A DNA stretch of 64,000 nt from Pristiophorus japonicus (taxonomy: Eukaryota). Position 1 is the stretch's first letter. Each line of letters opens with the position of its first letter. The stretch spans positions 620,001 through 684,000 of the forward strand of contig NW_027251165.1 in NCBI RefSeq assembly GCF_044704955.1, written 5' to 3'. Below the pieces are notes generated by a model. That model saw only the letters and a list, made by a program, of their open reading frames with translations. It was not told the origin of the DNA and searched no databases. Made by a program: the position numbers and the translations under genes. Positions 31,401 through 64,000 of the stretch are shown here, piece by piece.

Positions 31401-31981
31401 CCGGCTGCTTTTCGGTTGGTGACAGTTTCTTTTCGGTTCAGTTGGAGATGTGTTCAGTTCAGTTCGTTTGGGGCCGTGTTCGGTTTGGTCATGGCCGACA
31501 TCGCTTCGGTTGTGTCCAGATTCTTTTCGGCTCAGTTGAGGCTGGGTTCAGTTCGGTTCGGTTGGAGCAGGTTTATGTAGGGGGCCGGGTTCGTTTCGGG
31601 CCGGGTTTGGTTCTGTTCGGGGCAAGTTCAGTTTGGTTCTTTGTGTTGGGGCCGGGTTCTGTTGAGGAAAGTTACAATTCTTTATTGTTGGGGCCGGGTT
31701 CGTTTGGATCCGGGTTCGGTTCGGTCGGCGCTCAGTTCGCTTCGTTCGGTTAAGGTCAGTTCCGGTTTGGTTGGGGCTGGGTTTGGTTCGCTTGGTTCGG
31801 GTAGGACTTAATCAGTACGGTTGGTGCCAGGTTCAGTTAACTTTCGGACGGATTTGGTTCAGTTCGAGCCGGCTTTGGTTTGGTTGCAGCCGTGTTTGAT
31901 TGGGCACCGGTTCGGTTCAGTTGAGGCCGTGTTTCGTTCAGTTGCGACCATGTTCGCTTAGATTGGGGCCAGGTTCTGTTC
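28472..31981 (+). repeat. Satellite 1, block B
   Basis: Same pentamer satellite, lying between CR1 copies 1 and 2. Confidence 0.95.
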
Positions 31982-33809
31982 ATAGAACATAAGAACTTAA
32001 GAATTAGGAACAGGAGTAGGCCTCTAGCCTCTCGAGCTTTCTCCGCCATTCAACAAGATCATGGCTGATCTGGCCGTGGACTCAGCTCCACGTACCCACC
32101 CGCTCATAAAATTCTTAATTCCCTAATTGGTTAAAAATCTATCTATCTCTGACTTGAATACATTCAATGAGCTAGCCTCAACTGCTTCCTTGGGTAGAGA
32201 ATTCAACAGATTCACAACCCTCTGGGAGAAGAAATTCCTTCTCAACTCGGGTTTAAATTGGCTCCCCCGTATTTTGAGGCTGTGCCCCCTAGTTCTAGTG
32301 TCCCTGACCAGTGGAAACAACCTCTTTGCATCTATCTTGTCTATCCCTTTCATTATTTTAAATGTTTCTGCAAGATCACCCCACATACTTCTGAACTCCA
32401 ACGAGTAAAAACCCAGTCTACTCAATCTATCATCATAAGGTAACCCCCTCATCTCAGGATTCTGCCTAGTGAATCGTCTCTGTGCCCCCTCCAAAGCCAA
32501 TATATCCTTCTTTAAGTAAGGTCACCAAAACTGCACGCAGTACTCCAGGTGCGGCCTCAGCAATACCCTGTACAGTTGCAGAAGGGCATCCCTGCTTTCG
32601 TACTCCATCCCTCTCGCAATGAAGGCCAACATTCCATTCGCCTTACTGATTACCTGTTGCACCTGCAAACTAACTTTTTGGGATTCATGCACAAGGACCC
32701 ACAGGTCCCCGTGCACCGTTGCATGTTGTAATTTCTCCCCATTCAAATAATATTCTCCTTCACTGTTTATTTTCCCAAGGTGGATGACCTCACACTTTCC
32801 GACATTGTATTCCATCTGACAAACCTTAGCCCATTCGCTTAACCTATCGAAATCTCTTTGCAGACTATCTGTGTCCTCTGCACAACCGGATTTCCCAGTA
32901 ATCTTTGTATCATCTGCAAATTTTGTTACACCATACTCTGTCCACTCTTCCAGGTCATCTATGCATATTGTAAATAGTTGTGGTCCCAGCACCGATCCGT
33001 GTGGCACACCACTCACCACCGATTTCCAACCCGAAAAGGACCTATTTACCCTGACACTCTGCTTTCTGTTAGCCAGCCAATTCTCTATCCCTGCTAATAC
33101 ATTTCCACTTACTCTGCCTACCTTATCTTCTGCAGTAACCTTTTGTGTGGCACCTTATCGAATGCCTTTTGAAAATCTAAATACACCACATCTATCGGTC
33201 CACCTCTATCCACCATTCTCGTTATATCCTCAAATAATTCCAGTAAATTAGTTAAACATGATTTCCACTTCATGAATCCATGCTGCGTCTGCTTGATTGC
33301 AATATTCCGATCTACATGTCCCGCTATTTCTTCCTTGATGATAGTTTCACGCATTTACCCCACTCCAGATGTTAAAATGACCGGCCTATAGTTACCTGAC
33401 TTTTGTCTGCGCCCTTTTTTAAACAGAGGCGTTACATTAGCTGCTTTCCAATCCGCTGGCACCTCCCCAGAATCCAGATAATTTTAATAGATTGTACCTA
33501 ATATCTGCTCTAACTTGAGCCATCTCTTTTAATACCCTGGGATGCATTTCCTCAGGACCAGGGGACTTGTCTACCTTGAGTCCCATTCGCCTGTCCAGCA
33601 CTACCCCCACTAGTGATAGTGAATGTCTCAAGGTCCTCCCTCCCCACATTCCTGTGACCAGAAATTTCTGGCATGATTTCTCTGTCTTCCACTGTGAAGA
33701 CCGAAGTAAAATAATTGTTTAATGTCTCAGCCATTTCCACATTTCCCATTATTAAATTCCCCTTCTTCTCTCTCTAAGGCACCAACATTTACTTTACTCA
33801 CTCTTTTCC

Positions 33810-35490
33810 CTGCAGTCAGAATCAGGGGAAGTCATAACGGGGAAGAAAGAAATGGCGCACAAATTGAACAAGTGCTTTGTTTCGGTATTCACTGAGGAGG
33901 AGACAAACAACCTTCCGGATATAAAAGGGGTCGGAGGGTCTAGTAAGGAGGAGGAACTGAAGGAAATTGTGTGGGGGAAACTGATGGGATTGATGGCCGA
34001 TAAATCCCCAGGGCCTGAAGGACTGCGTCCCAGAGTACTTAAGGAAGTGGGCTTGGAAATAGTGGATGCATTAACAGTCATTTTCCAACATTCCATTGAC
34101 TCTGGATCAGTTCCTATGGAGTGGAGTGTAGCTAATGTAACCGCACTTTTTAAAAAAGGAGGGAGAGAGAAAACAGGGAATTATAGACCGGTCAGCCTGA
34201 CATCGGATGTGGGTAAAATGATGGAATCAATTATTAAGGAAGTCATAGCAGTGCATTTGGAAATAGGTGATATGATAGGTCCAAATCAGCATGGATTTGT
34301 GAAAGGGAAATCATGCTTGACAAATCTTCTGGAATTTTTTGAGGATGTTTCCAATAGAGTGGACAAGGGAGAACAAGTTGATGTGGTATATTTGGACTTT
34401 CAAAAGGCTTTCGAAAAGGTCCCACACAAGAGATTAATGTGCAAAGTTAAAGCACATGGATTGGGAGTAGTGTGCTGACAGGGATTGAGAACTGGTTGTC
34501 AGACAGGAAGCAAAGAGTAGGAGTAAATGGGGACTTTTCAGAATGGCAGGCAGTGACTAGTGGGGTACCGCAAGGTTCTGTGCTGGGGCCCCAGCTGTTT
34601 ACACTGTACATTAATGATTTAGACGAGGGGATTAAATGTAGTATCTCCAAATTTGCAGATGACACGAAGTTGGGTGGCAGTGTGAGCTGCGAGGAGGATG
34701 CTATGAGGCTGCAGAGTGATTGGATAGGTTAGGTGCGTGGGCAAATGCATGCCAGATGAAGTATAATGTGGATAATTGTGAGGTTATCCACTTTGGTGGT
34801 AAAAACAGAGAAAGAGACTATTATCTGAATGGTGACATATTCGGAAAAGGGGAGGTACAAAGAGACCTGGGTGTCATGGTACATCAGTCATTGAAGTTTG
34901 GCATGCAGGTACAGCAGACGGTTAAGAAAGCAAATGGCATGTTGGCCTTCATAGTGAGGGGATTTGAGTACAGGGGCAGGGAGGTGTTGCTACAGTTGTA
35001 CAGGTCCTTGGTGAGGCCACACCTGGAGTATTGTGTCCAGTTTTGGTCTCCTAACTTGAGGAAGGACATTCTTGCTATTGAGGGAGTGCAGCGAAGGTTC
35101 ACCAGAGTGATTCCCGTGATGGCGGGACTGACCTATCAAGAAAGACTGGATCAGCCGGGCTTGTATTCACTGGAGTTCAGAAGAATGAGAGGGGACCTCA
35201 TCAAAACGTTTAAAATTCTGATGGGGTTGGACAGGTTAGATGCAGGAAGAATGTTCCCAATGTTGGGGAAGTCCAGAACCAGGGGACACAGTCTAAGGAT
35301 AACGGGTGAGACATTTAGGACCGAGATGAGGAGGAATTTCTTCACCCAGAGAGTGGTGAACCTGTGGAATTCTCTACCACAGAAAGTTGTTGAGGCCAGT
35401 TCACTGAATATATTCAAAAAGGAGTTAGATGAAGTCCTTACTACTAGGGGAATCAAGGCGTATGGTGAGAAAGCAGGAATGGGGTACTGA
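33810..35490 (+). pseudogene. CR1 ORF2 reverse-transcriptase/C-terminal domain pseudogene (2 frameshifts, no endonuclease domain)
   Basis: [47 protein letters not shown] and RPHLEYCVQFWSP are spread over three overlapping ORFs. Confidence 0.92.
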
Positions 35491-35575
35491 AGTTCAGCCA
35501 TGAACTCATTGAATGGCGGTGCAGGCTAGAAGGGCCGAATGGTCTACTTCTGCACCTATTTTCTATGTTTCTATG
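33810..35575 (+). mobile_element. Nested CR1 LINE of a different subfamily, 5'-truncated
   Basis: Plus-strand ORF2 pieces 33852-34478, 34472-34732 and 34720-35490; tail (TTTCTATG)n at ~35559-35579; TSD TTTCC at 33805-33809 and 35576-35580; the host CR1 sequence resumes exactly afterwards. Confidence 0.95.
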
Positions 35576-35792
35576 TTTCCGTTTTATATATCTGTAACAG
35601 CTTTTACGATCCAATTTTATGTTTTGCGCAAGTTTACCATTGTAATCTATCTTTCCTTTCTTTATTGCTTTCATAGTCATTCTTTGCTGTCGTTTAAATG
35701 TTCACAATCTTCTATTTTCCCACTAACCTTAGCCAACTTATACGCATTGGTTTTAATTTGATACTCTCCTTTATTTCCTTATTTATCCACGG

Positions 35793-38700
35793 CTGTTCGA
35801 TTGGGGTCATGTTCGGTTCGATGGTGCGAGGTTCGGTTTCATTCGGGAGAGGTTTGGTGCGGTAGGGGAGGGGTTTGGTTGGGGATGGATTCGGTGCGGT
35901 TGGGGCCAAGTTCACTTAGGTTGACGCCGGTGTGGTTCGTTTGGGGCCATGTTCAGTTCGGTTGGAGCAGGGTTCGATTGAGGCCGGGTTTGTTTCGGTT
36001 GGGGCCGGGTTTGTTTCAGTTGGGGCCTGGTTTGTTTCGTTTGCGGCAGGATGCGGTTGGGTTCGGGCCTGGTTCTGATCAGTTCGGGCCGTGTTCTGTT
36101 CGGTTATCGCCGGGTTCTGATGGGGAGGGGTTCGGTTGCGTCCGGTTCGGTTGGGGAGAGGTTCGGTTGCGGCTGGGTTCGGTTCGTTTGCTGTTGGGCC
36201 GGGTTCTGTTCAGCTGGGTTAGGGCCGGGTTATGTTCAGTTGGGGCAGGGTTCGATTCAGTTTGGTACGAGTTCGTTTTAGTTGGGTCCGGGTTCGGCAC
36301 GGTTGGGGCCGTCTTCGGTTCGGTTGGGGCCGGGTTCGTTTCGGTTGGGGCCGGGTTCGTTTCGGTTGAGGCCGTGTTCATTTCGGTTGGGGCCTGCTTC
36401 ACAACGTTTGGGGCCCAGTTCGGTTCGTTTGGGGCCAGGTTCGTTTCAGTTGGGACCGGGCTCGGTTCAGTTAGTTTGGGGATGGGTTCGGTTCGGTTCG
36501 GTTGGGGCTGGGTTCAGTTTGGTTGGGTCCGGGTTTTGTTCGGTTGGTCAGGGTATTCTTCGGTTGGGGCTGGGTTCTGGTCGGTTGGTGCCAGGCTCGG
36601 TTCTATTGGGGCCGGGATCGTTTCGTTTGGGCCGGGTTCGCTTCGTTTGGTGCTGGGATCCGTTCAGTTGAGGACATTTTCGGTTCTCTTGAGGCCGGGT
36701 TCGGTTTGGTTGCGGCCGGGTTCGGTTCGGTTGGGGCCGGATTAGGTCCGTTGGGGCCGCGATCGGTTCGATTGGAGACAGGTTGGGTACGCTGAGGAAA
36801 AGTTTGGTTCGGTTGGACTTGGTTCCGTTCGTTTGGATGCGGAGTTCTGTTCGGGCTGGGTTTGGTTCGATTGGGGCTGGGTTTGGTTTGGTTGGGGCCG
36901 GGTTCGGTTCAGTTCGGACAAGGTTTGGTTGCGGACGGTTTCGGTCCAGTTGGGTTCAGGATGGGGTTCGGTTCTGTTGCGGTCCGGTTCGGTTCGTTTC
37001 AGCATGTGCTGGGTTCGTTTAGCTTGGGGACGAGTTCAGTTGGGGCCGGGTTCAGTTCGGTTGTGGCAGGGTTCGGTTCGGTTCGGTTGGGGCCGGTTTC
37101 GGTTCGGTTGCTTCCGGGTTCTTTTCCGTTGGGGCCAGTTTCTGTTTGATTCAGTTGGGGATGGGTTCGTTGCAGTTCGGTTGGGGCCGGTTTCAGTTTG
37201 GTCGAGGCCGGATACGCTTCGATTAGGGAAAGTTCGTGTTCGGCTCAGTTGCCGCTGGGTTAGGTTCGATTCGGTTGGGGCCAGTTTCGGTTGGGGCCGG
37301 GTTCGGTTCGGGCCGTTTCGGTTCAGTTCGGGCCGGGTTCAGTTTGGTTCTTTGTGTTGGGGCCGGGTTCTGTGGGGGAAAGTTTCGGTTTGGTATTGTG
37401 GGGCCGAGTTCGTTTGGAGCCAGGTTTGGTTCAGTTCGGGATGGGTTCGGTTCGGTCGGGTTGAGGCCGGGTTTGGGTCGGTTGGGGCCGAGTTCGGTTG
37501 GGATTGGTTAGGTACGGTTGGTGCCAGGTTCGCTTCGTTTGGGATTGGTTCCGTTCGGTTGGAACCGGCTTCGGATTGGTTGCGGCCTTCTTTGTTTGGG
37601 GCCAGGTTTGGTTCAGTTGGGACATGGTTCGGTTCAATAGTGACCATGCTCGCTTCGGTTGTGGCCGGCTTCTGTTCGATTGGGGTGATGTTCGGTACGG
37701 TTGGAGCCAGGTTCCGTTTAGTTCGGGACGGGTTAGGTTCGGTTGGGTAGGCGTTCGGTTCGGCACGGCATCGGTTCGTTTGGGGTCGGGTTCTGTTCGG
37801 TTGGGGCCGGGTTCTGTTCGGTTGGGTCCGGGTTCGGTTCTGTTGGGGCCGGGTTCCTTTCGGTTGGGGCTGGTTTCGGTTCAGTTGGAACCGGCTTCGG
37901 TTCGGTTGGGACCGGGTTCGGTTCAATTGTGGTCGGATTCGGTACAGTTGGGGCCCGATTCGCTTCGGTTGGGGCCGGGTTCGTATCGATTGGGGAGGGA
38001 TTCGGTTGGGGCCGGCGTCGGTTCGGTTGGGGCTAGGTTTGGTTCGGTTGTTCGGGCTTGGTTCGCCTCGGTTCGGCTGGGGCCCGCTATAGTAAATTTG
38101 TGACAGGGTTCGGTTCGGTTGAGGCCAGTTTCAGTTGGGACCGGGTTCGGAGTTGGCCGGGTTCGGTTCAGTTGCGGCCGGGTATGATTCGGTTGGGGCA
38201 ATTTCGGTTGAGTTCGTGACAGGTTCATTTCAATTCGTTGGCTTGCGGCCGTGTTCTGCTGGTAAAGTGTTGCTTCGGTATTGTAGGTGCCGGGTTCGGT
38301 TGGGGCCGATCACCGTTCAGTTGGGGATGGTTTCGGTTCGTTTGGTTTGAGTCCGGGTTCTATTCGGTTCGGGCCATATTCGTTTTGGGCCGAGTACTTT
38401 TGGGTCCGGGTTCAGTTGGGGACGGGTTCATTCCGGACTGGTTCAGTTCGGTTCGGCCCGAGTTCGATTCTGTTGGGTTGGGGCCGGGTTCGGTTCTGTT
38501 AGTGACGGGTTCTGTTCGGTTGGGTCCGGGTTCGGTTGGGGACGAGTTCGGTACAGTTGGTATGTGGCCGGGTATAGTCCAGTTGGGGTCCGGTTCGGTT
38601 GGGTTGGGGACCTGGTTCGGTTCGGTTTGGGCTGGGATTCGTTCGGTTGATGCAGGGTTAGGTTCGCTTGGGGACGAGTTCAGTTTGTTTGGTGCCCGTT

Positions 38701-51285: not shown

Positions 51286-52928
51286 AAAAGAACATAAAAA
51301 TTAGGAACAGGAGTAGGCCATCTAGCTCCTCGAGCCTGCTCTGCCACTCCTAAAGATCATGGCTGATCTGACCGTGGACTCAGGTGCACTTACCCGCCCG
51401 CTGCCCATAATCCTTAATTCCCTTATTGGTTAAAATTCTATCTATCTGTGATGTGAATAAATTCAATGAGCGTGTCTTAACTGCTTCCCTGGGCAGAACA
51501 TTCCACAGATTCACATCCCTCTTAGAAAATAAATTTCTTCTCAACTCAGTTTAAAATTGGCTCCCCCGTAATTTGAGGCTGTGCTCCCGATTTCTAGTCT
51601 CCCCGTCCAGTGGAAACAATCTCTCTGCCTATAACTTGTCTATCCCTTTCATTAATTTAAATGTTTCTATAAGATCACCCGTCATCTTCTGAACTCCAAC
51701 GAGTAAAGACCCAGTCTACTCAATCTATCATCATAAGGTAACCCCCTCATCTCCGGAATCAGACTCGTGAAGCGTCTCTGTATCCCTTCCAAAGCTACTA
51801 TATCTTTCCTTAAGTAAGGTGACCAAAATTGCACGCAGTACTCCAGGTGCGGCCTCACCAATACCCTATACAGTTGCAGCATGGCCTCTCTGCTTTTGTA
51901 CTCCAAACCTTTCGCAATGAAGGCCAACATTTCATTTGCCTTCCTGATAATCTGCTGCACCTGCAAACTAGCTTCTTGGGATTCATGCACAAGGACCGCC
52001 GGGTCCCGGGCACCGCAGCATGTTGTCATGTCTCCCCATTCGAATAATATTCACTTATACTGTTTTTTTTCAAAGGATGATGACCTCACATTTTCCGACA
52101 TTCCATCTGTCAAAACTTAGCCCATTCGCTTAACCTATCTAAATCTCTTTGCAGCCTCTCGGTGTCCTCGACACAGCCCGCTTTCCCACTAACTTTGTGA
52201 CATCAGCAAATATTGTGACACTAAACTCTGTCCCCTCTTCCACGTCATCTATGTATATTTTAAACAGTTGTTGTCCCAGCACCAATCCCTGTGGCACACC
52301 ACTAACCACCGAGTTCCAACCCGAAAAAGACCCATTGATCATGACTCGCTGCTTTCCGTTAGCCAGCCAATTCTCTATCCCTGCTAATACATTTCCTCGG
52401 ACTCTGTGTACCTTTATCTTTGGCAGTAACCTTTTGTGTTGCACCTTTTCGAATGCCTTTTGGAAATCTGAATAGCCACATCCATCGGTACACCTCTATC
52501 CACCATGCTCGTTATATCCTGAAAGAATTCGAGAAAATTACTAAAACATGATTTCCCCTTCATGCATCCATGTTGCGTATCTTTGATTGCACTATTCCTA
52601 TCCAGATGTCCCGCTATTTATTCATTAATGATAGCTTCAAGCATTTTCCCCATTGCAGATTTTAAACTAACCGTCCTATAGTTACCTGCCTTTTGTCTGC
52701 GCCCTTTTTAAAACAAAGGCAGTATATTAGCTGCTTTCCAATCCGATGGTACCTCCCCAGAATCCAGAGAAATTTGCTAGATTATAACGAATGCATCTGC
52801 TATAACTTCCACCATCTGTTTTAATACCCAGGGATGCATTTCATCAGGACCACGGGATTTGTCTACCTTGAGTCCTATTAGCCTGCCCAGCACTAGCCCC
52901 CTAGTGATAGTGATTGTCTCAAGGTCCT
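51286..52928 (-). mobile_element. CR1 LINE copy 3, 5'-truncated, degenerate
   Basis: Tail AAGAACATAAAAATTAGGA at 51288; ORF2 fragments SGVPQGLVLG, FADVTK and RPHLEYCVQFWSP; same family as copies 1 and 2 but different junctions; no clear TSD. Confidence 0.93.
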
Positions 52929-53098
52929 GCTTGAACCGAACCTGGCCCAAACCGACCCGAATCTGGCCCCAACCGAACCCTTTCCAACCGAACGGAACCT
53001 GGCCCCAACCGAACTGAACCAGGCCCCAACCGAACCAGGCCGCAACCGAACCAAACATGTCGCAATTGAATCGATGCTGGCCCGCACCGTACCGAACC
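52929..53098 (-). repeat. Inverted segment of satellite 1 (GAACC orientation)
   Basis: Reads AACCGAACCTGGCCCCAACC; it is the only reverse-orientation satellite 1 in the window; its reverse complement resembles 53430-53600. Confidence 0.9.
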
Positions 53099-53879
53099 GT
53101 TTGGTTTGGGGCAGGTTCGGTTCGGTTGGGGCCGTATTTGGTTCGGTTGGTGCCGGGTTCTGTTCGGTTCGGTTGGGGCCGGGTTCGGTTCGGTTGGTGC
53201 CCGTTTCGGTTCGGTTGGGGGAGGTTTCGGTTATTTTGGGGCCAGGTTAGGTTTAATTTTGGAGGTGTTCGGTTGGGGTAGGGCTTGCTTCGGTTGGGGA
53301 GGTGTTATTTTGTGACCGGGTTCGGTTGCGATTGGGTTCTGTTTGGTTGGGGCAATATTCGGTTCGGCTGGGGAGGGTTTAGCTTGGGGCCAGGTTCGCT
53401 GCGGTTGGGGAGGGGTTCAGTTGGGACCGGGTTCGGTTCGCTTCGGGCTGGCATCGATTCAGTCAGGGCCATGTTTGGTTTGGTTGCGGCCTGGTTTGGT
53501 TGGGGCCTGGTTCGGTTCGGTTGGGGCCAGTTTCGATTCGGTTGTGGAGGGCTTTGGTTGGGGGCAGGTATGGTTCGGTTGGGGCCCGGTTCGGTTCGGT
53601 TGGGATGGGGTTTTGTTCAGTTGGCTGTCGGCTTCGGTTCGGTTGCAACCAGTTTCTGTTCGGTTCGGTTGTGGCCAGGTTCAGTTCGTTGGGGATGGGT
53701 GCTGTTCGGTTGGGCCGGGTTCGGTTCGGTTGGTGGCTGGTTCTATTCAGTTAGGGCCGGGTTCGGTTGTGGCCAGTTTCAGTTCGGTTGGTGCCGTGTT
53801 TGTTTCAGTTCTGGCCAGGTTCGATTGGGGCCGGTTTCGCTACAGTTCGGGCCGGGTTCGGTTTGGGGCGGGTTTAGTT
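53099..53879 (+). repeat. Satellite 1, block E (terminal)
   Basis: Pentamer satellite up to the abrupt switch at 53880. Confidence 0.93.
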
Positions 53880-54298
53880 CCCCTCGGACATTGTGTATTG
53901 CGCCCCCCCCCGGAACTTGTGTATTGGGAACCCCCTGCGACAATGTGCATTTGCCCCTCCTCCCTGGAATTAGTGTATTGGTACCCTTGGGACATTTTAT
54001 ATTCGGCCCCCCCGGGACATTGTGTATTGGCCCCCCCCAGACATTGTGTATTGGGCCCACTTGGGACATTGTGTATATGGCCCCTCTGGGATATTGTTTA
54101 TTGGGCTCCCCCCGCGACATTGTGTCTTGGGCCCCCTCGGGACATTGTGTATTTGCCCCCCCCAGGACATTGGGTTCCCCCCCCCCCCACGGAGCATTGT
54201 GTATTGGGCCCCCCCGGGACATTGTGTATTGTGCACCCATGGGACATTTTGTATGGTGCCCTCCCTAGACATTCTGTATAGCCCACCCGGGACATTGT
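53880..54298 (+). repeat. Satellite 2, left part: ~24-26-bp unit GGGACATTGTGTATTGGGCCCCCCC
   Basis: Tandem GACATTGTGTATTG cores separated by variable C-runs. Confidence 0.95.
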
Positions 54299-54425
54299 CG
54301 AAAAGAGAGTAACAAATTAAAAAGCAATGTGAATAATGTGGCCAAGGTTAGTGGGATACTAGAAGATTGGGAAATTTTAAACGACAGTAACGAATGACTA
54401 AGAAAGCAATAAACAAAGTAAAGAT

Positions 54426-55091
54426 TGTTAGCGTTAGTGTTTTCTCTGAAGAATCACTCAACACTCAGGGTCGGTTCCAATGCTGAAGCAGCTTTATTAC
54501 GCTCAGCGGGAAGGAAAAACTCAGGACCGTATCCAGGTTTCTCTTCACAGAACAAAGAGTTACATGTACCTTTATATGTTTTACAACAGTTAAAAAACAG
54601 CTTTCTGCAGTTACACAGCTCATCACGGCTGGACACAAGCCAATCATAACGATTATAGATTACATATAGGTTTTTTAATCCAATAGAATTCTCCTAGTAA
54701 CCAGGGAACCATTGTCAATTTGGGTTGATCGATGACTTTATATGTTCTCTCCCTAGTTCTTTCATCTGGGAGAAATAATTGGTTTGTAGCCTTGTTTACA
54801 GCAAATGGTTTCCCTCTTATCTTTCTTCCTGGGGAATTAATTGGTTTATGGCCTTGTTCACAGGAGATGGCTTCCTTCTTATCTCTGCCTTCCCAGGCAT
54901 TCCTACAGTGGGCCTCACAGGGTTATTGCTCGGTCAGTGAACGTTCAACAGTTCACAGTTTGACTACCTGATTTCCCATAATGCCTGGGCAGCCATTTTA
55001 TGTGTGTGTCCATTTAAGCTTATGTGAGTTCTAAATATCCAGCAGGTGCCTAATGCCTAAGTCTATATATATCTTTCGACTCTCTACAACA
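54426..55091 (-). repeat. 3' LTR (666 bp)
   Basis: TGTTAG...CTACAACA on +; direct repeat of 59973-60638; minus-strand AATAAA at 54493-54498. Confidence 0.97.
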
Positions 55092-55103
55092 ATTCCCCCT
55101 TTC
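55092..55103 (-). promoter_or_regulatory. Polypurine tract
   Basis: The minus strand reads GAAAGGGGGAAT immediately before the TGTTG start of the 3' LTR. Confidence 0.9.
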
Positions 55104-55228
55104 GGTAAAGGGACTAGCCCTAGTCCCCTTTTAACCGAAATACTGCCTTTATCTGATATTTGTGCACGGCCCGGTATTCCTTGCCTCAACGTGCTGGCCA
55201 GTCACGCGGTTTCAGGAGTTCCGGTTGC

Positions 55229-56932
55229 TCAAATCAAATTAACAAAGGCTAGCTCCTCCCGTCCCCTTATCAAACAGACTTGTTTAATATCCAGGGAACG
55301 GTGATTGGTCCGTTTCTGCCGTTTGTGGCGCCTGCATACCTGGCAGGCCATCACGCCCCATGTTATTGCTAAGATTAATTGTATTCCGACCAGTGTGTGT
55401 GAAATAATTCGAATCCATGGGTGGATGTTCACATTTATTCCCCAGTCCCAGACCTTTCTCCACCAACTCTGACTTTGTAAGTCTACCTCGGTATCTTCTT
55501 TGATTTTAGTTTGTAGCTGGTGATAGAGTTTTACAGATTGACCCACTCTGAGCCTCAACTCCCGTAATACTTCGGTTAGATGTGGGATAGGGACCTGCTC
55601 TGGCTCGTCATAATCCTGCAAATGATCATGGAGCTGATCAGTTACTTCAATAACTTCGGACTTCCGGCGCCTAATCTGGGTGATATGCGCTTGCCCGATC
55701 GCGACAGGTCGTAGTGGTGTAAAGCAAAAGTTTGGCTGCGGTATAGGGCACTGCAGGTCATTATACTGGTATGAACGCTCAGTAGTAGAGACGCAGTATC
55801 TTCCCCTCCCTCCGTAGCCTGCCCTCGCGAAGTGCATGTGTGCGGGCACTATTTCTAGTACACACCCATTGGTTCGGTTAAACCCGCACTCGTCTAGTTC
55901 GCCTCGGCCCACCGGGTGAGGGCATACTGTGATTTCCCCCCTTTGCTTGCAATCTGCTAGGGAAATCCCGGTAAGTATGTTGTTTCGACGAACGGCAGAG
56001 GTGGTGGTCAGGTAGTAGCGTATGGAGACATTTTCCCGTATTACTCCGATATTCTCTAGTTGGTATAAGGGGAACGGCCCTGAGTCCGGCGTTGCTATGG
56101 GGATCAACAGGACTATCCCTATCCCGGTAGTCCTACCCATCTGGCAATCTGGAATTGCGGGGTATACTCGGGTCAGTCCCTTCAGAGTACAATTATCCAG
56201 TGTCCCCCTTTGGTTCGCCAACTGAGCTAAATGTGAACTGTCTATCCAATCGGGTACCTCCCCGCGTTGGATCTGGTTGAGGTTGTGGCGGATCTGTCCC
56301 ACCATCCACAGACCATAAGCATGACAGAGTTGCCCCTGTCTTTGCTTTATTGTATCTTCTTGTTCTCTATCAATGAGGTGATTGATGGTTTTAGCGTGAG
56401 CTTCCAGGACTGAGATGCCATCCAACTGGATTTCGGCCCCCTCCTTTCCTAGGTTGGCCTGGTCTTCCTGGTTTTGCTCCACCCTCTCCAATAACCCCTT
56501 CATCACCCCTTTAAGCTGTTCTACCCTCTCATTTAGCCCTTGTATGTCTATCGAGTTCACTACGGAGGTTCCTGTATTGAAAACGGTAGCAACATCATTT
56601 ACTATTTCCCTCTTCACCCTGGGTGCTAACCCCTGTCCCCGGAACTTACTGGCACCCATGGCATCGGCAGCCTGCTGCATTACGACTTTACTTAATACAT
56701 TGTACATCTTCCTTGACTGTTCGGTACAATATTCCGGCATCTGGATGCCTGAAATATTGATCAGAACAGGCACAATTTCATGTTTAACATTATCATACAA
56801 TAATTCCCCTTCGTTGTACATTGCAATCCCATTTTCTGGTCCCTTAGTAGTTATGGGACAAGGCAGTTCTTCGGGCAATGTAGTGATTCTTATGGGGCGC
56901 GGTGTCGGAGGGGGTGAGAAACATACATACAA
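55229..56932 (-). CDS. env: Envelope / class I viral fusion glycoprotein (F-protein-like layout); 567 open codons but no signal peptide in this frame
   Basis: Furin site RVKR (aa 105-108, nt 56609-56620), then an apolar fusion-peptide-like segment (EIVNDVATVFNTGTSVVNSIDI) and a heptad repeat (LNERVEQLKGVMKGLLERVEQ); Cys-rich region (DCKQRGEITVCP...ECGF..NGC...YCV...CPIPQPNFCF); sequons NIS, NCT, NVS and NRT; Trp-rich membrane-proximal stretch; TM helix (IISHTLVGIQLILAITWGVMAC) and basic tail; located just upstream of the PPT. The listed start is TTG directly after an in-frame TAA, so the true start is uncertain. Confidence 0.85.
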   Translation of the reverse strand: MYVCFSPPPTPRPIRITTLPEELPCPITTKGPENGIAMYNEGELLYDNVKHEIVPVLINISGIQMPEYCTEQSRKMYNVLSKVVMQQAADAMGASKFRGQGLAPRVKREIVNDVATVFNTGTSVVNSIDIQGLNERVEQLKGVMKGLLERVEQNQEDQANLGKEGAEIQLDGISVLEAHAKTINHLIDREQEDTIKQRQGQLCHAYGLWMVGQIRHNLNQIQRGEVPDWIDSSHLAQLANQRGTLDNCTLKGLTRVYPAIPDCQMGRTTGIGIVLLIPIATPDSGPFPLYQLENIGVIRENVSIRYYLTTTSAVRRNNILTGISLADCKQRGEITVCPHPVGRGELDECGFNRTNGCVLEIVPAHMHFARAGYGGRGRYCVSTTERSYQYNDLQCPIPQPNFCFTPLRPVAIGQAHITQIRRRKSEVIEVTDQLHDHLQDYDEPEQVPIPHLTEVLRELRLRVGQSVKLYHQLQTKIKEDTEVDLQSQSWWRKVWDWGINVNIHPWIRIISHTLVGIQLILAITWGVMACQVCRRHKRQKRTNHRSLDIKQVCLIRGREELAFVNLI

Positions 56933-57074
56933 TTATATTGCAGCCGCCCCCGCCTCCTCGTAATACCCACACAGCCCCATTCCCTTCTTGCGGATGACTG
57001 ATTGCTGGGATTGTCCCGGAGGCGCGCAAATTATGCCGAAAGTACATTCATCAGGCCCTTTGACATCCCTCCGT

Positions 57075-57356
57075 TTAATGCATCTGCTCCTTATACCCGT
57101 GGAGCACTGTACACATACTCTTATTCTTATTAGGATTCTTATTAGGATTCACTTGTAACCATGCATTAAAATAAGTCCTGTCCTTGCTCCAGTCCTTGGT
57201 TGCTGGGATGCACATTCCGTCCGTTAAATTAAACAAGACTCCATAGTTCATATCGTTGTTTATTTCCAGCGTGCTCTGCTGTCCGTCGGTGTTGCCCAGG
57301 GTACGTGCATGTCGCAGGGCTATCCATATTACGAGTAGCGCCTTTCGTATTCCCAT
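57075..57356 (-). CDS. Signal-peptide-bearing 93-aa ORF, probably the detached N-terminus of env
   Basis: First ATG after the splice acceptor, in strong Kozak context (GGAATGG); MGIRKALLVIWIALRHARTLG resembles a signal peptide; sequon NLT; out of frame with the 567-aa ORF. Confidence 0.6.
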   Translation of the reverse strand: MGIRKALLVIWIALRHARTLGNTDGQQSTLEINNDMNYGVLFNLTDGMCIPATKDWSKDRTYFNAWLQVNPNKNPNKNKSMCTVLHGYKEQMH

Positions 57357-57444
57357 TCCGGTAAGTATTATCTGTAATTTTAAACAGACGGCCTGGTCGT
57401 CACCAGGGGTTAAGTTTTTTTGCTCTACGAGTGTCCCTGTCACC

Positions 57445-57472
57445 CTGCAAAATCAGAAGGACAAGGTTATAA
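57445..57472 (-). promoter_or_regulatory. Candidate env splice acceptor
   Basis: Minus strand TTATAACCTTGTCCTTCTGATTTTGCAG|G: branch-point-like motif, pyrimidine tract and CAG. Confidence 0.7.
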
Positions 57473-57580
57473 TCGAACCATTTCGAGCTGAATCTGTAGG
57501 GCGTGCGCCCGTCTCTTTACCCACTTAAATATTACCCAAACTCCTATTATGACCAAGGCCAAAGCTATTCCTCCAAACAT
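57467..57580 (-). CDS. Putative 37-aa single-pass membrane accessory protein (MFGGIALALVIIGVWVIFKWVKRRAHALQIQLEMVRL)
   Basis: Hand translation, below the ORF-track cutoff: 18 uncharged hydrophobic residues followed by KWVKRR; lies just upstream of env. Confidence 0.45.
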   Translation of the reverse strand: MFGGIALALVIIGVWVIFKWVKRRAHALQIQLEMVRL

Positions 57581-57719
57581 CGCTGTCTGCTTTACCGTTA
57601 GGTTGGGTTTGTGGACTACACCTACCCACCGTGGGGTACATTGGCTCTATTGCCAGAGGTGATGGTGCTATGGCTGCGCACTGCACTATCCGTCTAGTCC
57701 CGTTATCTCTTCCAGCCTG

Positions 57720-59416
57720 TTTATCTTAGCTTTTAACTCTTCAATTTGTTTTATTGAATATCTATTTCTTTATTGTATCAGGCAAGTATTATTACATAAG
57801 CTAGTTCTGTTTTTATTTTTGTTTCCTCTGTTAGGTGAGTCCTTTTTTTCCCTATTAAGAAATCCAAATTAATAATGTTCAGTATAAAACGGCTGTCAAT
57901 GGAAAGGGTTAACTCCTTTCCAGGTTTGTAAGAAGACCTGATGTCATTACGTGACTTCACGTAATCATCTGAAAAAAAAATCTTTGTGCCTTCAAAACTG
58001 GCTTCGAAATTAGGAATCCGTTAAACAGCATAAATCATTAGAGTAAACTCCAATGTTTTCTTAACTTCTAATTCAAGTACTTGCCAAAGAATTTTTTTTT
58101 TTTAAATTGTTTTAAAACAAGACCACACATACAATAGCAATTTTGTTTACTGAAATTCAATTCTGTTTTTTTTTTTTATTTCTCTCTTTCTCCTCGTTAT
58201 CTTCAAAACCCTCCTGCTTGTTTAGACTGTTCGGGACATTTTGGAAATCTTTTCAAACTGCATTGAAACTTTTTCATAATTGAAAATTCGAATCCATGTA
58301 GAGTGTTTTTTACTTATACCAATTTTTTTTTTTTCCTCTTCTAATTAAACCAATATCTTTTTCACAGCAAACATCAACTAGTATTTAGTAAGTTATGTCT
58401 TTTTCCATTTAGTCCGTTACATCTTTTTTTTTTTTTCTTTCTTCAAATTAGGTTTTGTATTTTACACGGAGGGTTCGTAACTCCATAAAGTTGTTAATTT
58501 GTTTACTTTCAAAGTGGCGTCTTTATCTTTTTCTTTTTCTCCATAACTGGAATGGAGACCAGCTTTGAGAGTTTGAGTGCTGCCTTTCGTTATCTCAAAA
58601 TGCTCCAGTTTCAAAGCCGTTACTAAAGCTTGCTGTTTTTTAACATTTTCCAAAAGTTCCTTTTACACCTTCGCAGATAGCTCGCCACTTGCCCAGGAGT
58701 TTGACCTGATCAGATTTAATTTAATCTTTTTTTTTTTAAATCCACCTCAGTATTTCCTGTGCCTTCTCTGAATATCTCAAAATCCCAATTCAAACTTTGT
58801 AATTTCAATCTTTATTTGAAACTTTTTTTTTTTTAGAAGCTCTTTTTTTTTAAAGCATTCTTTATCTCATTCCGAGACTAAATTTATGTCTTTCAACCCA
58901 ATCAATCATTGCATGTTTACTTTCGGCAAGTAAGTGAGCATGTCAAATAAATATTTTGCTCAACAAACCTATTCTTTATTTGTTTATTCTCCTAGCTCCG
59001 TAACTTATCATCCGAATAAATCCACACCTGCGTTTCTAACTTAAATGTCTTAAAACTTCCCACATACAGGACAACATTACAAAGGGTTTAAAAAAAAAGA
59101 CTTTCACTCTGTTTCTAAAATAAACAGACACTTGCATTCCTCTTCCAACCAGGCTTTCGGAACATGAAAACATAAAACAAAAATTCATTCTGCAGTCAAA
59201 AATCACAGACACTTCTCACTCAACGATCAGACATTTACAACAGTCTCTCTTCTTGTTTTGGCCGGCTCTATTTTTGGATCCATGACCTTTCAGGGAATTC
59301 GTAGTTTTATCTAAATAATTCCTCACATAACTAATTAGCTTCTTTTGTTTTTCCGCCAGGTGGCGGGTAAGCGACCCTTCTGGTCCCCACTCGAGTTTAC
59401 TTGTTTTCATGGCCAT
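57720..59416 (-). pseudogene. Decayed A-rich interval at the gag(-pol) position
   Basis: Positional call only. It starts with the 66-aa ORF MAMKTSKLEWGPEGSL after the leader, then has short broken frames and many A-runs on the sense strand; no CCHC, DTG, YxDD or integrase motif was seen. Confidence 0.4.
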
Positions 59417-59909
59417 TCCTGGGTAGGACTGGTATCGTTAGGAATCTACTCTCAGCGGTCCGCTTTCTTTCTAGCGCGACTTGTAGTAAACTGTCTCTTG
59501 GCTACTGTCAGGTCACAAGTTCTGCTGTTACACAAACTTATACAATTCTTAAAAACGCGTTTACGCAATTCCCGCAGTGCTCTACGTATCCTTAACGACT
59601 ACCTACCACCGCTCAGCCCGTTGGTCCGACCCTGTTCACAGGTTTGGATTCCGTTAGCCGCTGTACACCGCTTGGTTCTACCCCGGGGTATTTCAAATTA
59701 CACTACTGGGTCCGGAAGATGTCTCTCGGTATCACGATCCCACGGTCTAAGCGTGTTCCCTACGCCTACTTGGTTCCTGGCCGTCACGTGGGACAAAAGT
59801 CCTCTTAATTCAGGCTCAGGCTAGGCGTTTGAGATATTAGACCGTCTCCTCATGTCGATCAACCAGCTTCCACCTTCCGCACCCTTTATACTTAAAAATT
59901 GTTTTTTAT

Positions 59910-59918
59910 ACTCACCCG
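59910..59918 (-). promoter_or_regulatory. Candidate major splice donor
   Basis: Minus strand CGG|GTGAGT about 35 nt downstream of the PBS, the usual position of a retroviral major donor. Confidence 0.7.
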
Positions 59919-59952
59919 GGTTTTTTTCCAAGGGCGTCCAGCGACTCCGGGA

Positions 59953-59971
59953 AATCCCGTCGACTACGCCA
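59953..59971 (-). promoter_or_regulatory. Primer-binding site for tRNA-Ser
   Basis: Minus strand TGGCGTAGTCGACGGGATT, 1 nt after the 5' LTR; 17/19 match to the complement of the vertebrate tRNA-Ser(AGA/TGA) 3' end as I recall it (TGGCGTAGTCGGCAGGATT). Confidence 0.88.
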
Positions 59972-59972
59972 T

Positions 59973-60638
59973 TGTTAGCGTTAGTGTTTTCTCTGAAGAA
60001 TCACTCAACACTCAGGGTCGGTTCCAATGCTGAAGCAGCTTTATTACGCTCAGCGGGAAGGAAAAACTCAGGACCGTTTCCAGGTTTCTCTTCACAGAAC
60101 AAAGAGTTACATGTACCTTTATATGTTTTACAACAGTTAAAAAACAGCTTACTGCAGTTACACAGCTCATCACGGCTGGACACAAGCCAATCATAACGAT
60201 TATAGATTATATATAGGTTTTTTAATCCAATAGAATTCTCCTAGTAACCAGGGAACCATTGTCAATTTGGGTTGATCGATGACTTTATATGTTCTCTCCC
60301 TAGTTCTTTCATCTGGGAGAAATAATTGGTTTGTAGCCTTGTTTACAGCAAATGGTTTCCCTCTTATCTTTCTTCCTGGGGAATTAATTGGTTTATGGCC
60401 TTGTTCACAGGAGATGGCTTCCTTCTTATCTCTGCCTTCCCAGGCATTCCTACAGTGGGCCTCACAGGGTTATTGCTCGGTCAGTGAACGTTCAACAGTT
60501 CACAGTTTGACTACCTGATTTCCCATAATGCCTGGGCAGCCATTTTATGTGTGTGTCCATTTAAGCTTATGTGAGTTCTAAATATCCAGCAGGTGCCTAA
60601 TGCCTAAGTCTATATATATCTTTCGACTCTCTACAACA
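59973..60638 (-). repeat. 5' LTR (666 bp)
   Basis: Direct repeat of 54426-55091 with three substitutions seen by eye; TATA-like motifs on the minus strand near 60207-60215 and 60118-60123. Confidence 0.97.
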
Positions 60639-62511
60639 AGATGGATTATGAAAGTAAACTTGCGCAAAACATAAAAACAGAAAGTAAAAGTTTTTACCAA
60701 TAAATAAAACGGAAAAGAATGACTAAAGTAAATGTTGATCTCTCAGAAGATGAGTAGGGAGATTTAATAATGGGAAATGTGGAAATTTCTGAGACCTTAA
60801 ACAATTATTTGTCTTCGGTCGTCACAGTGGAAGACACAAAAACCATGCCAAAAATTGCTGGTCACGGGAATGTGGGATGGGAGGACCTTGAGACTATCAC
60901 TATTACTAGGGTAGTAGTGCTGAACAGGCTAATGGGACTCAAGGTAGAAAAATCCCATGATTCTGATGAACTGCATCCCAGGGTATTAAACGAGATGGTG
61001 GAAATTATAGCAGATGCATTCGTTGTAATCTATCAAAATTCTCTGGACTCTGGGGATGTACCATCGGATTGGAAAGCAGCTAATCTAACGCCTCTGTTTA
61101 AAAAAGGGGGCAGACAAAAGGCAGGTAACTATAAGCCGGTTAATGTAACATCTGTAGCAGAGAAAATGCTTGAAGCTATTATTAACGAAGAAATAGCGGG
61201 ATATCTAGATAGGAATAGTGCAATCAAGCAGACGCATCATGGATTCATGAAGGCGAAATCATGTTTAACTAATTTACTGGAATTCTTTGAGGATATAACG
61301 AGCATGGTGGATATAGGTGTACCGATGGATGTGTGTATTTAGATTTCCAAAAGGCATTCGATAAGGTGCCACACAAATCGTTACTGCAGAAGATAAATGT
61401 ACGCGGAGTCAGAGGAAATGTATTAGCATCGATAGAGAATTGGCTAACTAACAGAAAGCAGAGAGTCGGGATAAATTGGTCCTTTTCAGGTTGGAAATCG
61501 GTTGTTAGTGGCGTGCCACAATGACCCGTGCTGTGACCACAACTGTTTACTATATATATAGATGACCTGGAAGAGGGGACAGAGTGTAGTATAACATGAT
61601 TTGCAGATGACACAAAGATTAGTGGTAAAGCGGGTTGTGTAGAGGACACAGACAGGCTGCAAAGAGATTTAGATAGGTTAAGCGAATGAGCTAATGTTTC
61701 GCAGATGGAATACAATGTCAGAAAATGCGAGATAATCCACCTTCGAAAAAAAACAGTAAAAGGGAATAATATTTGGATGGGGAGAAATTACAACATGCTG
61801 TGGTGCAGAGGGACCTGGGGTCCTTGTGCATGAATCGCAAAAAGTTAATTTGCAGGTGCAGCACGTAATCAGGAAGGCGAATGGAATGTTGGCTTTCATT
61901 GCGAGAGGGATTGAATACAAAAGCAGGGAAGTCCTGCTGCGACTGTCCACGGTATTTGTGAGGCGGCACCTGGAGTACTGCATGCAGTTTTGGTCCCCTT
62001 ACTTAAGGAAGAAGTACTTACTGACAGGTGGTACAGAGAAGATGCACTAGGCTGATTCCGGAGATGAGCGGGTTACCTTATGATGATAGGTTGAGTAAAC
62101 TGAGCCTTGACTCATTGGAGTTCAGAAGGATGAGAGGTGATATAGAAACATTTAAAATGGAGAAAGGGAGAGAGGTTTTTTCCACTGGTCGTCGAGACGA
62201 GAACTAAGTTGTACAGCCTAAAAATACGGGGAAGCCAATTTAAAATGGGTTGAGATTGAATTTCTTCTCCCAGAGGGTTGTGAATCTGTCGACTTCTCTG
62301 CCCAAGGAAGCAGATGAGGCTAGCTCATTGAATGTGTTCAAATCACAGATGGATAGATTTTTAATCAATAAGGCAATTAAGGGTTATGGGGAGCAGGCAG
62401 GTAAGTGGAGCTGAGTCCACGACCAGATCAGCCATGATCTTGTTCAATGGCGGAGCAGGCTCGAGGGGCTAGATAGCCTACTGCTGTTCCTAATTCTTAT
62501 GTTCTTATGTC

Positions 62512-64000
62512 CATTGTGTATTGCTCTCCCGCCCCCCCCCCCGCCCACCCTCCCCCCGCGCCGGGACGTTGTGTATTAGACCCTCCTGGGACATTGTGTA
62601 TTGGGCACCCCCGGTCATTTGGTCTCGGTCCCCGCCGGGTCATTGTGTATTGGTCCCCCCCGGAACATTGTGTATTGGCCCCCCCGGGAAATTGTGGATT
62701 GGATCCCTCCCGGGACCTTGTGTAAAGGACCCCCGGGTCATTTTGTATTGCCCCCACCCCTCTGAGACATTGTGTATTCGCCCGACCCGAATATTGTGTA
62801 TTGGGCCTCCCCGATACTTTTTGCATTGGGCCCACCCCGGGACGTTGCGTATTGGGAACCCCGGGGACATTTTGTGTTGCCCCAGCCCGGTACATTGTCT
62901 ATTCGGCCACCCACGGGACGTTGTGTACTATGCCCCCCCCCGCGACATTTTGAATTGCCCCAACCCGCACATTGTGTATTACACTCCCCCGGGAAATAGT
63001 GTATTGCAGCCCCGGGATATTGGTTATTGCCCCACCCTGCAAATTGTGCATTGGACCCCCTGGGACATTGTATATTGCCCCTCCCCTGCCGGGAGATTGT
63101 GTATTGGGGTTCTCCGGACATTGCGTATTGCCCAATCAGGGAAATTGCGTGGTGAGCCTTCCCCGTCCCGAGACATTGTGTATTGGCACCCCCGGGACAT
63201 TTTGTATTGGGCCCCCCAAGTGACATTGTGTATTGGGACCACCGAGACATTGTTTCTTGGGCCCTCCCCGGGACATTGTGTATTGCCCCCCATGGACATT
63301 TTGTATTGGGCACCCCCGGGACAATGTGTATTGGGCCCCCCCGGGATATTTTGTATTGGGACCCACGGGAAATTGTGTACTGGCACCCCCCGGGACATTG
63401 TGTATTGTCCCCCCCGGGGCATTGTCTATTGAGCCCTCCCCGGGGCATTGTGGATTGGGCCCCCCGGGATATTGTGTATTGGGCCCTCCCCCCTGGGACA
63501 TTGTGTATTGGGACCAAATGCCGGGATATTGTGTATTGAGCCCACCCCGGGACATTGTGTATTGGGCCCCCCCAAGACAATTTGCATTGTCGACCCCCTG
63601 GACATTGTGTATTGTGCCCCCCCCGGGACATTGTGTATTGTGCTCCCCCAGGGAGATTGTGTATTGTGCCCCGACGAAACATTGTGTATTGGGCCCACCC
63701 GGGACACTGCGTATAGGGCGCCCCGGAGACATTGTTTATTCGGCGTCCCCGGGACATTGTGTACTGGGCCCGCCCCCCGGGAGATTGTGTATTGGGCCTA
63801 CCCCACGGGACATTGTGTATTGGGCCCACTGGACATTGTTGATTTGGCCCCCCGGGACATTGATGACTGGGCTCCCCGCCGGACATTGTGATTTCGCCCC
63901 CGCGGGACATTGTGTATTGCCCCCCGGGGACATCTTGTTTTTGCCCCCCCCGGGACATCGTGTTTTGCCTCTCCCCCGGGACATTGTGTATGGACCCCCA
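62512..64000 (+). repeat. Satellite 2, right part (continues beyond the window)
   Basis: Tandem GGGACATTGTGTATTGGGCn units up to the window end. Confidence 0.97.

Follow-up and report, generated by a model that had tools for sequence, protein, structure and literature searches.

In the available portions of its description (PMC6112702), recKoRV1 takes its 5' long terminal repeat (LTR) and gag leader from an active retrovirus, continues with a middle from an older, unrelated endogenous retrovirus (ERV) and closes with an env end and 3' LTR; it is present in many copies with target duplications, codes for no intact virus, and has been proposed to involve co-packaging. Here we describe an LTR element from the shark Pristiophorus japonicus which occupies positions 54426..60638, on the minus strand, of a 64,000-nucleotide stretch of DNA (NCBI RefSeq assembly GCF_044704955.1, contig NW_027251165.1, positions 620,001 to 684,000; this whole stretch is referred to as the window, and all coordinates are given in its numbering). 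We consider it very probable that this element is a non-autonomous chimera of the recKoRV kind with a broken env, likely copied by the Gag-Pol of a helper retrovirus resembling snakehead retrovirus (SnRV). As far as the available text on recKoRV1 permits the comparison, the two share retained LTRs, primer-binding site (PBS), polypurine tract and target duplication, the loss of gag-pol, a middle derived from another ERV family, and the presence in the genome of a coding-competent parent that belongs to the same LTR family. They differ in that the shark family retains the whole length of env, albeit broken, numbers hundreds to about a thousand copies as against tens, and has an SnRV-like parent, in a shark, from which its env appears to have been repeatedly refreshed.

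SnRV-related ERVs are a recognised clade in the accessible parts of the literature (Huo, PMC6001957; PMC4977317), and occur in the elephant shark as CmiERV lineage I according to those of PMC4422223. The envelope protein (Env) of the shark family also bears comparison with fusogens of the paramyxovirus F type, which are already known in foamy viruses, lokiretroviruses and errantiviruses. The available sections of PMC11468914 give foamy virus Env an F-like core and a long transmembrane (TM) subunit, those of PMC7947760 give lokiretrovirus Env a signal peptide, an RXKR site, a fusion peptide, a coiled coil, a TM segment and a reported similarity to F while listing no cartilaginous fishes among the hosts, and those of bioRxiv 2023.10.26.564294 report that, among vertebrate ERVs, no intact homologues of the invertebrate elements were found. 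In a search mostly of the open literature, which did not cover the original SnRV paper (PMC190236), we found no paper stating that SnRV Env is F-like, and the available portions of bioRxiv 2024.03.17.585361 and PMC13709493 contain no such statement.

Structure and copies of the pol-less element

The element is bounded by two 666 bp LTRs (5' LTR, 59973..60638; 3' LTR, 54426..55091; both with TG...CA ends and, like all parts of the element, on the minus strand) that differ from each other by three mismatches, and is flanked by the target-site duplication AGAT (60639..60642, with its partner at 54422-54425). A polypurine tract (55092..55102) adjoins the 3' LTR, the internal region measures 4,881 bp, and a six-frame search found no reverse transcriptase (RT), RNase H or integrase coded in the element. 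Most of this had been described in an initial annotation made from the sequence alone. The annotation's serine PBS can be placed at 59954..59971, and is taken to be of the tRNA-Ser type. Likewise, its splice signals are canonical-looking candidate motifs, with a donor at 59909..59917 (near 59915) and an env acceptor at 57445..57466 (ending at 57445); among 18 full-length relatives, 17 have the donor motif and 15 have the acceptor motif in its exact form. None of the 15 joints listed, out of 19, from three contig sets of unknown kind matches the predicted splice, which is uninformative on expression. The description of the element as young is relative: at the shark substitution rate assumed in the available portions of PMC4422223 (2.2e-10 per site per year), three differences in 666 positions correspond to about 10 million years, and one difference to about 3 million years.

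The initial annotation overlooked two components of the internal region, a remnant of gag and a foreign middle. The remnant comprises 32 codons of helper type (59333..59428; 94% identity over 32 amino acids in a tblastn search with helper Gag). It is followed by 1.75 kb of A-rich, decayed filler (57580..59332) and then by the 3' half only of a small membrane-protein open reading frame (ORF; 57467..57579), the whole of which sits at the pol/env junction of the helpers. We examined 40 genomic matches to the filler, chosen by position among the first 100 listed on one contig (C1), and these comprise 27 pol-less env-bearing copies, 9 loci of a second ERV family (family B), 2 chimeras of filler, pol and env, and 2 other partial chimeras. 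In the family B loci (L045, L051, L053, L056, L059, L060, L062, L063 and L069), which are decayed, the filler has its counterpart immediately 5' of the capsid-coding frame, as collinear blocks with 75-100% identity. Gamma/epsilon-type Pol, and not the helper's, is the best-scoring match of family B Pol (3 of the 9 loci compared); the family has one zinc knuckle, and its PBS, taken to be Leu-type, differs from the helper's. On this homology, the 1.75-kb middle is derived from a second, class I ERV family. A decayed helper gag-pol was also considered as its source, and is ruled out by the absence of any match between 59332-57580 and the helper at the DNA or protein level. Loci L064 and L066 are gag-less chimeras that run from LTR through filler to helper pol and env, and constitute a second recombinant class.

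Downstream of the filler lies env, which the initial annotation had read as a glycoprotein of 567 amino acids. That frame (55229..56932) runs from stop to stop, and begins at a stop rather than at a start codon. In the full-length relatives Env is one frame of 707 amino acids from its methionine, with a furin site ending at residue 245 and a TM helix from residue 649. In the window, env starts at 57356 with a signal peptide and the beginning of the surface part (57075..57356), leaves its frame at about codon 75 within a tandem-repeat tract (57120..57150), after which this first part reads out of frame into an early stop, and is closed in its own frame by a premature stop at 56933-56935 that characterises the youngest subfamily. 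The 567-aa frame is therefore the rear of a 707-codon gene; a frameshift and a stop separate it from the signal peptide, and it holds the furin site (56609-56620), long helices, a Cys-rich beta domain, a C-terminal helix and the TM helix. The furin site consequently falls less early than it had seemed, while the reported stretch of about 460 residues behind it is confirmed (462 aa).

Neither the pol-less structure nor the broken env is peculiar to the window. When the genome (5.9 Gb) was searched with the element at the DNA level, all 40 scored matches had about 100% identity, and we define a near-identical set of 20 fetched copies plus the window element (n = 21). All 20 fetched copies have the same pol-less structure, are 5.8-6.3 kb long and lie at different insertion sites. 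Each of the 21 has its own target duplication and different flanks, across many contigs; the duplications are 4 bp long in 8 copies and 5 bp in 13, a mixture that can be set beside the mostly 5-bp duplications of the helpers. LTRs are identical in 16 of the 21 copies, the PBS is a variant in 7, and 20 have an open 567-aa rear frame. Exact genome-wide matches number 1,429 for a filler 30-mer, 1,487 for an env 24-mer, 410 for a 24-mer spanning the premature stop and 113 for a helper pol 24-mer, with a reversed-pattern control of 0 in each case. Extrapolating from the 27 of 40 sampled loci, there are about 960 pol-less copies, a figure that derives from one contig and includes assembly duplicates. 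A one-off deletion after insertion, which the initial annotation had named as a finding that would undo its reading, is contradicted by the 410 copies with the same premature stop and by the identical structure of all fetched copies, and the locus belongs to a multi-copy family without gag-pol. That the element moved while keeping its env is not borne out: env is broken in 21/21 near-identical copies, with both of the window's breaks common to the fetched ones, and in 27/27 position-sampled pol-less copies. Nearly all of the latter are frameshifted at the same place, even those with 3% LTR difference, and most of the older ones carry extra frameshifts or stops in the rear frame.

The full-length helper and its envelope protein

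A protein search for open frames with the 5' part of Env yielded 20 fetched loci, chosen for open env, of which 18 have a full-length gag-pol-env layout, most of them 9.3-9.4 kb long. All three frames are open in 9 of these 18, and identical LTRs are found in five, but four of the helper loci have flanks in common and probably represent one insertion. The helpers and the window element belong to one LTR family and have leader and env in common, at about 89-97% identity (whole-LTR matches, 89-97%). Their gag of about 470 aa has two CCHC knuckles and is followed by TGA, a pol of about 1,180 aa that encodes protease, an RT with the motif YVDD, tether, RNase H and integrase, and env, with gag and pol in one frame and the TGA junction present in 17 of 18. 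The initial annotation had suggested looking for gag-pol elements with the same LTR; they exist, and carry an env of their own. A helper of the same LTR family in the genome also accords with its proposal of movement in trans. As a side observation, the pol/env interval of 17 of the 18 helpers (L021-L038) holds a small ORF of 66 aa from its methionine with one predicted membrane helix, a candidate accessory gene.

The annotation's loki- or errantivirus-like affiliation is not supported by the helper. Its RT-RNase H scores 405 bits with xenotropic murine leukemia virus-related virus/murine leukemia virus (XMRV/MLV), 205 with foamy virus and 204 with Ty3, and its RNase H alone 124 bits with XMRV/MLV against 22.6 with foamy virus. 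The closest relatives of its Pol come from sharks, minnows, eel, herring, carp and frogs. A scan of viral contigs with a single helper RT returned no locus and with an alignment query 16, the best of which (L081) has 46% RT identity, while 14 other full RT matches have 35-41%, and the other isolate viruses with such a match 36-41%. L081 has UAGGGC at its read-through stop and one zinc finger, and its genome length agrees with that of SnRV; on these three features it is taken as SnRV. The UAGGGC context is given for SnRV in PMC13517186. In a quick RT tree of 68 rows, the helper, L081 and fish and frog rows are split from the gamma/epsilon rows with an SH-aLRT of 99; counting against the placement, the tree is unrooted, keeps 68 of 135 rows (all loci, the closest matches and named ones) and includes no foamy, loki or Ty3 rows. 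The Gag zinc-knuckle regions of helper and L081 are 54% identical over 41 aa, and L081 Env is collinear with the shark Env family (profile alignment probability 90.8, E 1.2e-6, 300 columns; 14.8 bits, a score that none of 500 shuffles reaches, their maximum being 3.7). By these sequence comparisons, the helper appears to group with snakehead retrovirus rather than with lokiretroviruses, errantiviruses or foamy viruses.

The helper resembles SnRV, its closest isolate, in lying on the same side of the RT tree, in gag-pol read-through, in a similar zinc-knuckle region and in a homologous Env with about 460 aa behind the furin site. It differs in having two zinc knuckles where SnRV has one (PMC2717909), in a TGA rather than UAG read-through stop, in its Env, which has 707 aa and a surface part that is much shorter, and in the 66-aa membrane ORF ahead of env. 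With lokiretroviruses it shares gag-pol-env with tether and RNase H, whereas their RNase H groups with foamy viruses in the available sections of PMC7947760 and the helper's is MLV-type. Foamy Gag lacks zinc knuckles (PMC2717909), unlike the helper Gag, which carries CCHC knuckles and reads through into pol. As with errantiviruses, judging from the available portions of bioRxiv 2023.10.26.564294, a probable F-type env is found in an LTR element, with Gypsy env and Baculo_F among the nearest language-model clusters (see below); the helper Pol is retroviral, in contrast to the Ty3/gypsy Pol of those elements.

With fairly high confidence, we regard the Env as F-type, that is, as a class I fusogen of the paramyxovirus and foamy virus kind, on the basis of its layout, an AlphaFold model and its language-model neighbours. 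F proteins have a short pre-cleavage part, a furin site, long helices, a Cys-rich beta domain, a further helix and a TM anchor, in that order. The available portions of PMC11468914 give the same order. An AlphaFold model of 497 window residues, built from a 52-row alignment (mean predicted local confidence, pLDDT, 71.5; predicted template-modelling score, pTM, 0.56), places strands and a helix before the furin site and, after it, three long helices, then a confidently modelled beta-rich domain and finally a C-terminal helix, and so predicts an F-type order; in this probable build and in its long TM subunit the helper Env resembles foamy virus Env as presented in the same portions. The nearest clusters in the Atlas, a language-model resource, are Gypsy env, Baculo_F and Fusion_gly at 0.94-0.95 (Mustelus protein, 0.91-0.93), with PF00523 clusters among the neighbours at 0.91-0.94. 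The features of a gamma-type Env are absent: two control Envs have a CX6CC motif and a TM subunit of about 200-230 aa, while the Env described here has no CX6CC, a TM part of 462 aa and 10 Cys in the ectodomain behind the furin site.

Several results pull the other way. Sequence searches of Pfam and PDB with the 567-aa frame and its alignment found no match to an F protein, and helper Env matched neither a Pfam family nor foamy Env at the sequence level; the sole family match, to Baculo_F in 1 of 18 Env homologues, is weak (E 0.0011, below the cut-off). A model built from a 12-row alignment reached a pLDDT of only 32.9, and the Atlas recognition values (1701 and 1608) fall below the threshold of 2300 and are flagged as weak. 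A separate, diverged Env fold, or a surface/TM protein of gamma-like type with a long insertion, would account for the missing sequence matches and for the CXXC motif in the surface part. We nevertheless consider it improbable, given the absence of CX6CC, the long post-cleavage part with its beta-rich Cys domain, and the fact that 10 of the 10 best family-bearing Atlas matches belong to one family or clan (a third of shuffled proteins do likewise). The F-type glycoprotein of the initial annotation is in this respect probable, by layout, model and neighbours, though no Pfam or PDB match that reaches significance speaks for it.

Most Env relatives are proteins of sharks, in agreement with the shark origin that the annotation had guessed, and include an Env-related protein annotated from P. 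japonicus that has a 99% match in the genome; a further protein search with the Env alignment added one new shark sequence only. Homologues also occur in frogs, in the form of a 16-member cluster in Mantella (P0223, mostly 677 aa) and in Pelodytes and Xenopus (P0220, P0233, P0202 and P0222 are among the homologues). A divergent shark homologue is named Ig-like by UniRef, and P0222 has a weak V-set match (E 0.045) that hints at an Ig-like domain within the surface part. Pieces of Env lie inside the predicted host proteins P0210, P0217 and P0232 (a Niban-like protein, an fbxo15 isoform and a cadherin-domain protein), and are probably exonised or mis-joined bits of proviruses.

Mosaic env and competing readings

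The front and rear of env in the young pol-less copies have different nearest relatives. In trees of 43 copies (FastTree, without a formal test), codons 1-133 set the pol-less copies apart from the helpers with one exception, while codons 151-400 and 434-707 nest the young pol-less copies among the helpers. The window's leader and 5' env differ from older pol-less copies at 0-3 positions per 220 nt and from helpers at 5-20; directly behind the premature stop, the window has no difference in 440 nt from a helper, and the older pol-less copies have 10-11 per 220. At about 56918, beside the stop, older pol-less copies give way to a helper as the closest relative. Retroviral recombination requires two RNAs in one particle, and the mosaic env therefore points, indirectly, to co-packaging with helper RNA.

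These observations can be accommodated in the following mechanism. Template switching, with RNAs of the helper family and family B packaged together, would have given rise to the chimera. As all cis signals are retained, helper proteins could package, reverse-transcribe and integrate it, and repeated co-packaging with helper RNA would swap the rear of env and the LTR. Because the rear is replaced from helper RNA, a long open frame would survive behind the breaks, and the same replacement would account for the low ratio of non-synonymous to synonymous differences (pN/pS) between the window and the helpers (0.13-0.14). Env would then be a passenger rather than a service to others.

Selection on env was gauged by simple counting with no transition correction, which cannot separate drift from weak selection. 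Some of the values sit uneasily with a pure passenger: pN/pS among pol-less copies is 0.2-0.3, and for private changes it is 0.54 in 27 pol-less copies, close to the 0.46 in 17 helpers. Recombination with helpers can explain the low ratios, though perhaps not all of them. The private changes of the 27 pol-less copies comprise 86 synonymous, 159 non-synonymous and 9 stops, and those of the 17 helpers include no stops. Further points of caution are that 2 of the 20 open-env loci are pol-less with an open env, in a set selected for open env, and that the abundance of the family was judged from one contig, with assembly duplicates among the counted copies (4 helper loci share flanks).

The broken env might still yield a selected product, either a short secreted 5' peptide or the rear part through splicing, frameshifting or an internal start, for instance in receptor blocking. 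The open rear frame of nearly all near-identical copies, the ratios of 0.2-0.3 and the single frameshift carried through copies with 0-3% LTR difference can be read in its favour. It is nonetheless quite unlikely, as the rear frame was recently acquired from helpers, lacks a signal peptide, and has suffered further frameshifts or stops in most older pol-less copies.

The initial annotation went further and cast the element as the env-donating half of a two-component retroviral system, in which pol-less copies provide Env to env-less gag-pol elements. The excess of pol-less env-bearing over pol-bearing copies, about 10:1, would suit such a system, as would the two pol-less copies with open env and the conserved splice motifs. 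However, env is broken in every near-identical and position-sampled pol-less copy, and the 18 full-length loci carry an open env of their own (they were selected for it, and env-less gag-pol elements lie outside that count). A helper with its own open env means that the env-donor role in a two-part system does not fall to the window element, and the idea, already largely refuted, is very unlikely. Least credible of all is a spread of the copies by segmental or satellite duplication rather than reverse transcription, to which the satellite setting of the window on a small contig and the shared flanks of four helper loci might have pointed, and which is refuted for the examined copies by the separate 4- or 5-bp duplications and different flanks of all 21.

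Genomic setting and significance

The element is inserted in a decayed long interspersed nuclear element (LINE) within a satellite region of a small contig. The LINE RT region that holds it (60639-62500) is 67% identical to LINE copies at other loci, and a 25-bp satellite lies on either side of this LINE. Most of the window consists of a 21-bp GGTTC-rich satellite with a strong strand skew (1269-53900, 53880-54298 and 62561-63999). The satellite is interrupted by stretches of ordinary base composition at 26000-28500, 31500-35800 and 51300-53200, probably other insertions, and an ARAGORN tRNA-Arg call inside it at 24176-24248 is probably spurious.

In itself, the element is a defective passenger of a known, recKoRV-like kind that is unusually abundant, and its mosaic env would be a record of repeated co-packaging with the helper. 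For the wider family, we lean towards the view that SnRV-like retroviruses of sharks, skates, frogs and snakehead carry a paramyxovirus/foamy-type F on an orthoretrovirus-type gag-pol, and so form a third F lineage beside the foamy viruses and lokiretroviruses. F would on that view be the ancestral envelope of retroviruses and the gamma/beta Env its later replacement, and this shark would offer a recently active example, with intact copies and a thousand-copy chimeric parasite that swaps env with them. If the Env of the SnRV lineage is indeed F-type, the question raised by the lokiretrovirus paper, whether F is ancestral or was separately gained, could be put to the test in a third lineage, one with a cultured virus among its members. 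What is of lasting interest is less the element itself than the Env of the SnRV lineage and its probable F type.

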